Shown piece by piece: positions 28,601 to 31,600 of a stretch of DNA of 64,000 nucleotides (position 1 is its first letter; every line of letters starts with the position of its first letter). The stretch comes from Escherichia coli (GTDB lineage Bacteria; Pseudomonadota; Gammaproteobacteria; Enterobacterales; Enterobacteriaceae), in NCBI RefSeq assembly GCF_030013595.1, contig NZ_CP122768.1; one strand, written 5' to 3'. The position numbers were made by a program.

Positions 28601-31600
28601 TTGCTGGTCAGGCCGGTAATTTTTGCTACATCGCTAATGTTCATCGTTCGCGCAACGCCTCCTGTGCTTTATTAAAGGGTTTCAACAGATAATCCAGCAC
28701 GCTTTTTTTGCCGGTGCGGATATCGACCGTCGCCACCATGCCGGGAAATATCGGAAACTGCTGTTTATGTTTATTTTCCAGATGGTTGCTGAAAGTGCGA
28801 ATGTACACCCGATAGTAATAAACATCGCGCCGCACTTCATCCTGCACGGTGTCTGGTGATATCACCGCCACTTCTCCCGGCAGGCCGCCGTAGATGGAGT
28901 AATCGTAGGCAGTTATTTTCACCAGCGATTTTTGCCCCGGGTGGATAAACGCCACATCGCGCGGGGAGATTTTTGCCTCAATCAGCAGTTGCTCATCCAG
29001 CGGCACGATGGTCATCAGTTTACCACCGGGGGCAATGACGCCGCCAACCGTGGTGACGTCAATGTCCTGAACAATGCCACGTACCGGCGCGGTAAAGTTG
29101 AGCCGGGTGAGAGAATCTTCCCGCCCGCGGATCACCGAACGCTGGGTTTCCACTTCCGCATTGGCTTTCGCTAACTCTTCGCGCGCCTGAACGTAATATT
29201 GCGTGCGCACGTCGCTGAGTTTGTTTTCCAGTTCATTGGCCTGGCGTTGCAGGCGCAGCACTTCAACGCTGCTCGCCGCCCCCTGTTTTACCAGCGGCAG
29301 GGTCATCGCCAGTTCGCGGTTGACCAGGCTAATCCCCTGCGTCAGCCCGGTGGTGGCTTTGTTCAACCCGTCGCGGCGAGTGTTGTACAACGCCGTTTCC
29401 GACTCGATAAGTTCGGGGAATTTATTCAGTTCGTCAGGGAAGACCAGCGGTTTATTACTCACTTCCGCCCGCAGCCGCGCCGAGGTTGCCAGCGCCGCGT
29501 ACAGCCGCGACATTGCTTCCTGGACGTCGGATTCCGTTTTGGTGCGGTTAAGCTGCGCCAGCGGCTGGCCCTGTTCAACAATATCGCCAACCTTGACGTC
29601 GAGATGATACAGAATTCCGCCTTCCAGCGACTGCACCACCTGTTCGCGCCCGGAAGGTTCTACCGTGCCGCTGCCGGTGGTGACTTCATCAAGCTGGAAG
29701 TACCACGCCCAGCCGAGAAAACAGAGCAGCATCACAGCGGTAACGCGTACCGCCAGCGCCGAACGCGGCAGGCGGGGTTCAGTCAGGCCACGGTTGTATT
29801 GCAGTTGTCCATTCATGCGGCAGACCCCTTATTCTTCTCCTGCAACACCACCCGTCGCGTCGTGGGTTCGCTCTGTTCACGCAAAATGGCCTCTTTCGCT
29901 CCATCCATCACAATCCGCCCCTGATCCATCACGATGATCCTGTCCACCAGTTGCAGCATCGCCGTGCGGTGAGTAGCGATGACCAGCGTGCGATGCCCAA
30001 CCCATTGTTTTAGTTGTTCAATTAAATACGCTTCTGCCATTTCGTCCAGCGAGGCGCTGGGTTCATCGAGCAGCACGATATTGGGTTGAGAGATGAGTAG
30101 CCGCGCCAGCAGCAGCGTTTGCCGCTGACCGCCAGAAAGACCAAATCCCCCTTCCTGAATCATGTAGTTGAGGCCGTTTTTCTGCTTCTGCACAAAGGGC
30201 AGCGCCCCGCTGAGCGTTAACGCGCGTTCGATATCTTCATCGCTGGCTTCCGGCATCCCCATGGTGAGGTTTTCCCGCAGTGAACCGAAAAATAGTCGCC
30301 CGGTCTGGCTGAGTAGCCCCATGTCGCGGCGCAGATCCGCCGGATCAAGCTGACCGATGCTGATGTTATCCAGCAGCACCTGCCCCTGCTGGGCGATACG
30401 CATTCCGGCGAGCATTTGCAGTAGCGTTGATTTACCCGCGCCGTTGCGCCCAAGAATGGCGATTTTCTCTCCGGCCTGAATGTTGAGTTTGCCAATCGCC
30501 ACATCGGCAATTTTCTCTTCTTCGTCGTAATAAAAGATAGCGTTGCTGAACTGATAATTGCCGTGCAGTACCGCTTTATGCACCAGCTTGCCGTGTTCCG
30601 GCTGATCCACCGGGCGCTTCATCAGTTCATCAAGGCCGTTGCGTGCCACTTTCGCCTGCTGCCAGCGCGAGAGTACGCCGGAAATCTGCGACAGCGGCGC
30701 AATAGTACGCGAAGCCAGGATCGTCGTTCCCACCAGTGCGCCGGTGGTCATGTCGCCGTTCATCACCATAAAGCAGCCCACCAACAGCACCACGACGTAG
30801 ACGATGGATTGCACTTCCTGAGTCCAGGTGAGCAGTAGCCCGGTGAGAAAACGTTGCTTCATACTGATGGACGAGGCCACGTCGTTGGTGTGGTTCCACT
30901 GATTCTGAAAACGCTGTTCAGCACGCAGCAGTTTAATATCTTCAATCGACTGCACGGCTTCCACCAGCGTAGCGTTGCGTACCGCTGACTCGCGCATTCC
31001 TTCGTTCGCCAGCCGCGCCAGCGGGCGTTGCACCAGCAGGCCAGGGATCACTAATAACGGCAGTGCCAGCAAAACCACCAGCACCAGCCAACCGCCGATC
31101 ATCCACAAAATAAAGACAAACAGCAGGAAGAACGGCAGATCCGCCACTGCACCAATGGTGGTGGAGGTGATCAGCTCCCGCACCGATTCCAGTTCGCGGA
31201 TCTGCGAGATAAACGATCCGGTGGATTTCGATCGCACGTTATTTTTCAGCCGTAATGCGTGACCAAAAACGCGATCCGAAATGCGCAGATCCGCCCGCTT
31301 GCCGATCACATCCGAAAGATGTGTGCGCACCATACGCATACAGAATTCAAACAGGATCGCCATCATCACCCCGGCGAACAGCACCCACAGCGTCGGGTAG
31401 GACTGCGCCGGAACCACCCGGTCGTAAACCTGCATCGAGAAAATCATCGCCGCCAGCGCCAGCACGTTCGCCACCAGTGACGCCAGCATAATATCGCCAT
31501 AGCGCCGCCAGTCTTTTAGCGAGAGATTCCAGAACCAGTTCGCCTGATACGGGCGAATGTAGTCATCCACCCGCGCGTCAGGGATTGCGCTGAGCGGGCG

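Follow-up and report, generated by a model that had tools for sequence, protein, structure and literature searches.

This locus raises the question of how a copper regulator is expressed when its start codon overlaps the stop codon of a secretion gene. CueR is the master switch of cytoplasmic copper defence, and if its supply hung on the adhesin operon upstream, copper tolerance in strains of the EHEC type would be subject to signalling by RstA and calcium. We analysed a stretch of 64,000 nucleotides of an Escherichia coli genome (contig NZ_CP122768.1), here called the window, in which cueR directly follows the gene for a T1SS adaptor.

Across the junction the minus strand reads 5′-...GAA CGA TGA ACA TT-3′, and the ORF calls place a 4-bp ATGA overlap at 28641..28644 (minus strand), made up of the cueR ATG (28644-28642) and the adaptor TGA stop codon (28643-28641). 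The cueR gene (28237..28644, minus strand) encodes a Cu(I)-responsive MerR-family regulator of 135 amino acids, the translation of which matched the equivalog model NF007590 with 308.6 bits (cut-off, 244) over residues 1-135 of 135 and TIGR02044 with 207.5 bits (cut-off, 147.4). The translation also contains the pair ...LALANAC(112)PGDDSADC(120)PII..., with both C112 and C120, which we take to be the metal-binding cysteines of established CueR structural work. The adaptor gene (28641..29816, minus strand) is intact and encodes an hlyD28-type T1SS periplasmic adaptor of 391 amino acids, which shared 99% identity with a sequence cluster of 2,601 members carrying the label Escherichia coli and scored 326.7 bits against TIGR01843 (T1SS HlyD adaptor; cut-off, 208.65), reaching position 422 of 422 of the profile at residue 391. 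Its homologues of 391 amino acids in other genera share this native C-terminus, ...EALRER*, and end in TAA or TAG stops in unrelated loci. The identical 4-nt overlap is annotated by RefSeq in HCP5S3_I2 and EDL933.

The sequence-only reading of the window had described this overlap, and the profile matches backing both ORF ends show that it is real. As stated there, no intergenic nucleotide separates adaptor and cueR, and cueR is physically the final co-directional ORF after tolC28, the adhesin gene, the ABC gene and the adaptor gene. The overlap itself is an ordinary type of operon junction: at least five ATGA overlaps occur in the window (19691-4, 25251-4, 28030-3, 28641-4, 29813-6), and a TGA is always on offer in the +1 frame because the second cueR codon is AAC. 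The part not due to chance is the conservation of the cueR/adaptor junction.

Gene order and ATGA junction are the same as in O-island 28 (OI-28) of strain EDL933 (tolC28-rtxA28-rtxB28-hlyB28-hlyD28, then cueR), an adhesin T1SS activated by RstA and Ca2+ (PMC12758282); neither cueR nor a promoter inside hlyD28 is mentioned in that paper. In a Cappable-seq study of EDL933, a primary transcription start site (TSS) was mapped to 604687, inside the adaptor gene and 160 nt upstream of cueR (PMC10469882 Tables S5 and S7), which begins at 604847 according to our check of the genome annotation. This TSS was present in 8 of 8 conditions with RRS values of 4.2-9.0, was listed as the main gene TSS of cueR, and was without significant differential regulation in the differential-expression table; 250 bp upstream were screened, and -160 is the only TSS listed for cueR (PMC10469882). 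The RRS of the -160 TSS is low.

Between -260 and -130 the window and EDL933 do not differ, and seven mismatches occur across the 260 bp upstream of cueR. Because of this identity with the strain in which the start was shown, we infer that the promoter is also present in the window, with the TSS, an A, at 28804 (minus strand). Direct reading revealed a candidate -10 element, TACTAT (28812..28817, minus strand), which is formed by the adaptor Tyr-Tyr codons TAC TAT and sits at -13 to -8 relative to the TSS, and, beyond a 17-bp spacer, a putative and weak -35 element, ATGAAG (28835..28840, minus strand), with three of six positions matching the consensus. Two adaptor homologues (L084 and L086) have TATTAC where the window has TACTAT. 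Neither in the window nor in K-12 did a consensus promoter scan report a sigma-70 site ahead of cueR, a negative result that is uninformative because the criteria of the scan are too strict for promoters as weak as these.

The sequence-only reading had offered two possibilities, that cueR, lacking its own promoter, is tied to transcription of the adhesin locus, or that a promoter lies within the adaptor coding sequence. The EDL933 Cappable-seq data (PMC10469882) contradict the first of these, and the start found at the same junction in all eight conditions speaks for the second possibility. A start within the last ~150 bp of the adaptor gene, with a recognisable promoter, had been named as the finding that would count against operon control; the mapped start inside the adaptor gene essentially amounts to this finding, although at -160 it lies just beyond these 150 bp.

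We therefore favour a model that, taken as a whole, we regard as probable and that combines a scar of an old insertion, an intragenic promoter at -160 and read-through, followed in K-12 by a single deletion and replacement starts. Most cueR transcription would begin at 28804 from a weak constitutive promoter of the sigma-70 type with TACTAT as -10 element, to which T1SS transcripts from upstream probably add by read-through. Translation of cueR would start from an AGGAGG located 13 nt before the ATG, and on the longer transcripts termination-reinitiation at the ATGA may also serve cueR. The 3′ end of the adaptor gene would thus double as promoter and leader of cueR, and CueR supply, and hence control of copA and cueO, would be largely independent of the regulation of the adhesin operon.

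The strongest competitor, although unlikely, holds that cueR is a functional last cistron of the T1SS operon, transcribed mostly from the tolC28 or hlyB28 promoters and translated by coupling at the ATGA, with levels tracking RstA and Ca2+. In its favour, the 4-nt overlap is part of a chain of overlaps leading from a fusion ORF via the adaptor to cueR, and a promoter/terminator scan showed no terminator-like site near the adaptor/cueR junction, which makes read-through into cueR plausible. The spacing of 13 nt between the Shine-Dalgarno sequence and the ATG is long, so that coupling could help cueR translation. Further TSSs of EDL933, present in most conditions, lie upstream of tolC28 (579751) and near the hlyB28 start (601588) (PMC10469882), and in K-12 SMRT-Cappable-seq detected full-length read-through transcripts running from glsA-ybaT through cueR, besides a start at 513953 (-40) (PMC6131387). 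The OI-28 mRNAs, that of hlyD28 among them, respond to RstA (3- to 5-fold) and to Ca2+ (2- to 3.5-fold; PMC12758282), so that a degree of coupling between cueR mRNA and the island is possible.

These observations are opposed by the separate and unregulated primary TSS at -160 and by the state of the island. In the window the adaptor is encoded beside genes for a T1SS ABC permease/ATPase (782.8 bits against TIGR03375; cut-off, 693.1) and a TolC-like outer membrane protein (349.8 bits against TIGR01844; cut-off, 225.15), but each of these two partner genes carries damage: a private deletion of 2,717 bp fuses the ABC gene to that of the adhesin, named SiiEA, BapA-related, by PGAP, and tolC28 carries a nonsense codon. 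Both lesions belong to the window and distinguish it from OI-28 of EDL933. With the island decaying, an essential-for-copper regulator that depended on it would be in a fragile position. Moreover, K-12-type strains, which make up 82% of E. coli, lack the island and have a normal CueR regulon, as is established for K-12. The evidence is thus mostly against operon dependence, which makes the link to adhesin transcription proposed in the sequence-only reading unlikely and removes a tempting but wrong regulatory connection.

The sequence-only reading had also suggested comparing the region upstream of cueR with that of K-12. In the K-12 ybaT-cueR region (a RegulonDB transcription unit) the ~92 bp preceding cueR aligned with the 3′ end of the adaptor gene, corresponding to 28645..28736 (minus strand) of the window, whereas the island and the -160 promoter are absent; the promoters used in K-12 differ from that of the island strain. 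The adaptor frame of the K-12 remnant is broken by a 1-bp deletion, and PGAP labels the remnant a frameshifted partial pseudogene. On this alignment, the K-12 "intergenic" region of cueR is what is left of the adaptor gene, a fossil of its last ~92 bp, and the textbook "promoter region" of K-12 cueR is thus a piece of a secretion pseudogene. Cappable-seq located cueR TSSs of K-12 at 513178 (-39, RRS 100) and 513131 (-86, RRS 49), with weak ones at 513102 and 513196 (PMC4782308), so that starts are known at -39/-40, -86, -115 and -21. According to the model favoured here, a single deletion in K-12-type strains took the island together with the -160 promoter and spared ~92 bp of hlyD28; cueR would now begin at -39/-40 within the remnant and at -86, the -10 element of the latter (TATTAT) having presumably been assembled at the deletion junction.

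These data bear on a further alternative, that the main promoter in the window is the proximal one of K-12, with starts near -39 and -21 inside the final ~75 bp of the adaptor gene, and the -160 start a minor by-product. The island allele is 92% identical to K-12 in the proximal region, with -47 to -1 the same in EDL933 and K-12; the K-12 start at -39 is strong (RRS 100); and two deletions that arose independently, in E. coli and in E. albertii, both retain the last ~57 bp or more. However, the EDL933 study lists -160 alone for cueR in the 250 bp screened. In addition, the best-fitting alignment gives the island allele a poorer core promoter at this site, with TCCGCA (28715-28720), an 18-bp spacer and TGGATT (28691-28696; all minus strand), where K-12 has TTCGCA and, after a spacer of 17 bp, TTGAAT with TGc before it. 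We consider this alternative improbable, somewhat more so than operon control. Sequences homologous to the K-12 -39 and -21 starts do exist in the window, with weaker matches to the consensus, and may be active at a level too low for the EDL933 study to detect. Faster-than-neutral evolution of the fossil following the deletion was considered and rejected, as its 7 differences in 92 bp compare with 16 in 136 third-codon positions of cueR between the same haplotypes (16 of 408 cueR nucleotides differ between window and K-12). Because of this third-codon divergence, the clustering of the fossil differences in the core promoter is only suggestive.

That the overlap is an annotation artefact, with the cueR start or the adaptor stop miscalled, is extremely improbable: we found no support for it, CueR aligns from end to end with its equivalog model and shares its start position across about 80 species, and the adaptor alignment extends to the last profile position, with homologues that stop at the same residue.

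The arrangement is not peculiar to this strain. The ATGA junction was present in 959 of 5,426 complete E. coli genomes as well as in E. whittamii and Escherichia sp. E1V33, and one deletion allele was found in 4,459 genomes (82% of E. coli). A search of E. coli for other deletion alleles turned up this single junction class alone. The separate deletions in E. coli and E. albertii each spared at least the last ~57 bp of hlyD28 (57-92 bp). OI-28 looks ancestral and later lost in K-12, contrary to the acquisition by EHEC suggested in the O-island literature, and the adaptor/cueR junction is old, widespread in Escherichia and functionally ordinary.

Outside Escherichia, cueR has a different neighbourhood. 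Of the ~75 loci with CueR that were retrieved from outside this genus, 53 have a copA start no more than ~230 bp upstream of cueR, mostly at about 95-110 bp, and in 49 a CueR box with one mismatch or none precedes the cueR start by 11-13 nt. In about 50 other enterobacterial species a divergent copA lies ~107 bp upstream of cueR, with the operator 12 bp before the ATG. The copA-cueR divergon, already noted for Salmonella (PMC1526738), was also seen in Citrobacter, Enterobacter and Klebsiella, with orthologous cueR and copA and the same operator sequence as in the window. There, operator and copA lie 11-13 bp and ~107 bp from cueR, whereas in the window the only CueR operator (ACCTTCCCCTTGCTGGAAGGT; 54244..54264, plus strand), identified by a box search, is situated at the copA promoter, 25.6 kb from cueR. 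No operator-like site precedes cueR, and the window's cueR does not have the target and operator immediately upstream on the opposite strand that define a divergon of the MerR type. A search of the window for a CueR box near cueR, as would be needed for autoregulation, was negative; a match with three mismatches at 29638-29658 is at chance level. In Escherichia, glsA-ybaT and the island lie between the copA-side operator and the cueR ATG, and on the copA side of K-12 homology to the ancestral region ends directly after ...GGAAGGTCAAG.

These comparisons suggest that glsA-ybaT and OI-28 (tolC28, giant adhesin, hlyB28, hlyD28) were inserted in an Escherichia ancestor between the CueR operator and the cueR ATG. 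The ATGA overlap would then be the scar of this old insertion, the native C-terminus of the adaptor ending in the TGA within the ATGA of cueR, and the insertion would have left cueR without its ancestral leader and its operator-adjacent position. The supplements of PMC2760140 do not mention cueR, and papers on the CueR biosensor, acid/copper and proteolysis contain nothing on a native cueR promoter.

A more far-reaching interpretation, which we put forward tentatively as it is rather less probable than its converse, is a promoter relay in which the insertion took from cueR its ancestral promoter beside the operator and placed it under the hlyD28-internal promoter, later deletion of the island in most E. 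coli lineages removed this promoter, and new elements came to the rescue. These would be a -10 element at the deletion junction (TACTAT, later TATTAT) and the proximal fossil promoter, the -35 element, spacer and -10 element of which all differ from those of the island allele toward the consensus. The need for cueR expression might then explain both the 57-92 bp spared in two deletions and an intact hlyD28 amid a decaying T1SS, as in this strain.

Expression of a gene from within its upstream neighbour is familiar from E. coli ftsZ, which is driven by promoters inside ddlB, ftsQ and ftsA. There, too, primary TSSs in the coding sequence of the upstream gene are combined with read-through for the downstream gene, whereas hlyD28 and cueR are functionally unrelated and were joined when a genomic island inserted at the start codon. 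The T1SSs of LapA (LapBCE; Pseudomonas), SiiE (SiiCDF; Salmonella) and BapA (BapBCD; Salmonella) have the same set of ABC, HlyD and TolC-like components as that of the window, and we know of no metal regulator that overlaps as downstream gene in the LapA, SiiE or BapA loci. In Pseudocitrobacter and Enterobacter cloacae, the genes that follow close homologues of the adaptor are convergent and unrelated. The cueR starts differ between I-type E. coli (-160) and D-type E. coli (-39/-86), which matters when promoter or reporter constructs of K-12 cueR, or K-12 models of the regulon, are moved into pathogenic strains.

Folding of the 160-nt leader and of the K-12 leader gave unremarkable energies (z -0.33 and +0.64, respectively), which argues against a riboswitch-like structure or one sequestering the Shine-Dalgarno sequence. 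The Shine-Dalgarno-like AGGAGG (28658..28663, minus strand), which lies in the adaptor codons Q385-E386-A387, was invariant in every Escherichia allele examined, the remnants of K-12 and E. albertii included. An Escherichia-specific exchange R385Q selected for this motif was considered and rejected, as residue 385 varies among homologues (K, R, Q, N, S, H), with Q also present in three other homologue matches.

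The minus strand reads ...GAA CGA TGA ACA TTA GC... at the junction of two genes, a 391-amino-acid ORF (28641..29816, minus strand) ending with a TGA stop codon at 28643-28641 and the 135-amino-acid cueR ORF (28237..28644, minus strand) starting with an ATG at 28644-28642. CueR is full-length (NF007590, 308.6 bits with a cut-off of 244, 1-135/135 covered) and contains both C112 and C120. The 391-amino-acid protein is an HlyD-type adaptor of a type I secretion system (T1SS); it was aligned to the final position of the TIGR01843 profile (326.7 bits, cut-off 208.65). On the same strand, it is preceded by genes for the T1SS ABC protein, a giant adhesin and a TolC-like protein and then by ybaT and glsA, with copA being divergent. 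As both ORF ends, both protein identities and the gene context fit, the 4-nt ATGA overlap described in the sequence-only reading is confirmed. Patterns of this kind are common: at least five ATGA-type junctions occur in the window, and a +1-frame TGA necessarily follows from AAC as the second cueR codon.

The secretion genes correspond to O-island 28 (OI-28) of O157:H7 (tolC28, rtxA28/rtxB28, hlyB28, hlyD28), an adhesin system activated by RstA and Ca2+ according to a 2025 paper in which cueR goes unmentioned (PMC12758282). Our literature search found no paper discussing cueR in the context of OI-28 or the adaptor overlap. Strain EDL933 has an identical hlyD28/cueR ATGA junction (hlyD28 end 604850, cueR start 604847), and region 27500-30500 of the window shares 100% identity with two isolates from pigs. 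Among 5,426 complete E. coli genomes surveyed, 5,424 possess cueR; in 959 of these, cueR is abutted by the complete adaptor 3′ end (island-type allele), whereas 4,459 genomes carry one uniform K-12-type ybaT-cueR junction (≥98.5% identity across 201 bp). E. whittamii and Escherichia sp. E1V33 have the overlap as well, and the arrangement is already annotated in hundreds of genomes. One island-type strain, E. coli SCPM-O-B-8794 (locus L006, ~1229-2998), has a broken-up ABC gene and, ~55 bp before cueR, a frameshifting 2-bp insertion in hlyD28, but still keeps the cueR upstream region.

The sequence-only reading offered two explanations for cueR expression, either as the promoterless last cistron of the adhesin locus or from a promoter inside the adaptor coding sequence. 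In the published Cappable-seq study of EDL933, in which 250 bp upstream of every gene were screened, a single transcription start site (TSS) is listed for cueR, 604687, located 160 nt upstream of the ATG (-160); it was seen in 8/8 conditions, which covered exponential as well as stationary phase and LB, minimal medium, acid and salt, with mean read scores of 4.2-9.0 and without differential regulation (PMC10469882). This position corresponds to nt 1012 of the 1,176-nt hlyD28 gene. A TSS inside hlyD28 that is used under all eight conditions and is not differentially regulated makes a promoterless cueR tied to the adhesin locus unlikely. The intragenic promoter, a well-known type of feature when feeding an overlapping downstream gene, is supported, since the TSS was mapped on an identical promoter sequence: the window matches EDL933 exactly from -260 to -130, which places the equivalent start at the A at 28804. 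It is preceded by a candidate -10 element, TACTAT (28812-28817), and, 17 bp further upstream, by a weak candidate -35 element, ATGAAG. Two adaptor homologues of other genera have TATTAC at the -10 position, lacking the final T. Judged by this identity, the -160 promoter probably works in the window's strain as well.

Read-through of T1SS transcripts probably adds cueR mRNA, because no terminator-like site was found near the cueR/adaptor junction and because of the analogy to glsA-ybaT-cueR read-through in K-12. Translation of cueR would be initiated via AGGAGG, 13 nt upstream of the ATG, and reinitiation at the ATGA might also contribute. A search for special RNA structure in the cueR leader gave none. 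The Shine-Dalgarno-creating residue Q385 was considered as an Escherichia-specific trait, which was rejected as Q385 is not restricted to this genus.

The comparison with K-12 proposed in the sequence-only reading revealed that the 124-bp "intergenic" region between ybaT and cueR holds the final ~92 bp of hlyD28, with a 1-bp deletion and six substitutions relative to the island allele, but lacks the promoter region with the -160 start. At the deletion junction, ...CCTGTACT, 38 bp past the ybaT stop, is fused to ATGGTGGCG.... In two K-12-type loci (L088 371-468 and L089 371-468), PGAP labels the remnant as a 98-bp pseudogene ('hypothetical protein; frameshifted; incomplete; missing N-terminus') sharing 4 nt with cueR. 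E. albertii shows a separate deletion: its left breakpoint is located deeper in the tolC28 upstream region, and only ~57 bp of hlyD28 remain, with -27..-1 identical. From these differing deletions and remnants, OI-28 looks ancestral in the genus and lost at least twice; the cueR-proximal end of hlyD28 was spared in each loss.

The K-12 starts have been mapped by others. Cappable-seq (U00096.2 coordinates, cueR ATG at 513217) gave plus-strand starts at 513178 (score 100; -39) and 513131 (49; -86) and weaker ones at 513102 (3.7; -115) and 513196 (2.0; -21) (PMC4782308). SMRT-Cappable-seq detected a cueR-only unit from 513953 (-40) and also full-length glsA-ybaT-cueR transcripts, and RegulonDB v10.5, as quoted in PMC10469882, places the start at -19. 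The -86 start lies 7 nt downstream of TATTAT, which was assembled at the deletion junction, as TACT|AT in a cryptic-clade allele (L005) followed by a C-to-T exchange in E. coli. TTCGCA and TGcTTGAAT, with a 17-bp spacer, agree with the -39 start; the island allele has TCCGCA and TGcTGGATT there, with an 18-bp spacer. K-12-type and island-type alleles show four fixed differences, all located within the -35, spacer and -10 of this promoter, which in the K-12 type shift toward consensus under the best alignment. Adaptive tuning of the -39 promoter can be offered only as a hypothesis, because one alternative -10 register favours the island allele and neutral divergence between the same haplotypes is high (16 differences in cueR, all at third-codon positions, 16/136).

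With CueR as query, cueR loci from 80 species were retrieved. Of the ~75 non-Escherichia loci, 53 have an opposite-strand copA beginning at most ~230 bp upstream of cueR (~95-110 bp in most), and 49 loci have a CueR box (ACCTTCC-N7-GGAAGGT, ≤1 mismatch) located 11-13 nt ahead of the cueR start codon. This is a classical MerR-type divergon, noted earlier for Salmonella (PMC1526738). In Escherichia, this box has remained next to copA (54244-54264 in the window), and on the K-12 copA side homology to the ancestral intergenic region ends directly after ...GGAAGGTCAAG. No CueR box was found ahead of cueR in the window, so that cueR has lost whatever operator-linked control it may have had in the ancestor. 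All sequence upstream of the cueR ATG is adaptor coding sequence. The adaptor's C-terminus is native, as homologues in Pseudocitrobacter, Enterobacter and numerous others, encoded at unrelated loci with TAA or TAG stops, also comprise 391 residues ending ...EALRER*. Taken together, the operator left at copA, the adaptor sequence reaching the ATG and the native C-terminus indicate that a glsA-ybaT plus OI-28 block has come to separate the cueR ATG from the CueR operator, in place of the whole ancestral cueR leader. In split divergons elsewhere (several Citrobacter, Kosakonia and others) the cueR spacer is at least 32 bp, the ancestral GGGGGAAAT Shine-Dalgarno sequence is kept, and no overlap with cueR was found. 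Split loci were seen in Citrobacter (L010, L014, L015, L017, L019, L020, L023-L025, L033), Kosakonia (L021, L030, L036, L044, L049) and two further cases (L038, L041). As the new sequence starts just 5′ of GGGGGAAAT, insertions seem to have recurred in the few bases between operator and ribosome-binding site.

Compared to EDL933 and to the nearest genome, HCP5S3_I2 (99.95% identical flanks), the window lacks 2,717 bp at 31708-31717, a 10-bp repeat shared by the breakpoints. Lost are the final ~2.45 kb of the adhesin gene, including its C-terminal end and stop, and the first 86 ABC codons, which leaves one in-frame adhesin-ABC fusion ORF of 6,735 amino acids (29813-50020, minus strand). This junction was found in 0/5,426 complete E. 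coli genomes and could reflect a private mutation or an error of assembly. In the tolC28-like gene (50315-51484, minus strand), codon 390 is a premature stop (50315-50317; EYK* versus EYKLGK...) without an indel, giving 389 instead of the 451 residues of EDL933. Both lesions suggest that the T1SS is decaying in the window's strain while hlyD28 remains intact. In ybbP (17346-19694, minus strand), a 66-bp in-frame deletion at ~18484-18491, flanked by an 8-bp repeat, shortens the product to 782 amino acids compared to 804 in HCP5S3_I2.

Between ybbJ and cueR (25710-28236), the window and EDL933 carry four extra genes, encoding a 120-residue hypothetical protein, a 338-residue YadA-like autotransporter adhesin and ORFs of 140 and 67 residues. 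K-12 lacks them, its cueR stop directly abutting the ybbJ stop, which represents a second indel flanking cueR. K-12 has a ChIP-seq-confirmed intragenic sigma-54 site in ybaT (CTGGCACTGGTTTTGCT), 679 bp upstream of cueR (PMC4591121 Table 2); its counterpart in the window (52369-52385, minus strand) has one -24 mismatch (GGCGC) and points to tolC28, not cueR. A candidate antisense sigma-70-like promoter in the cueR 3′ end (28252-28281, plus strand; ATGACA, 18-bp spacer, GATAAT; 10/12) is kept in K-12 (locus L002, 7386-7357).
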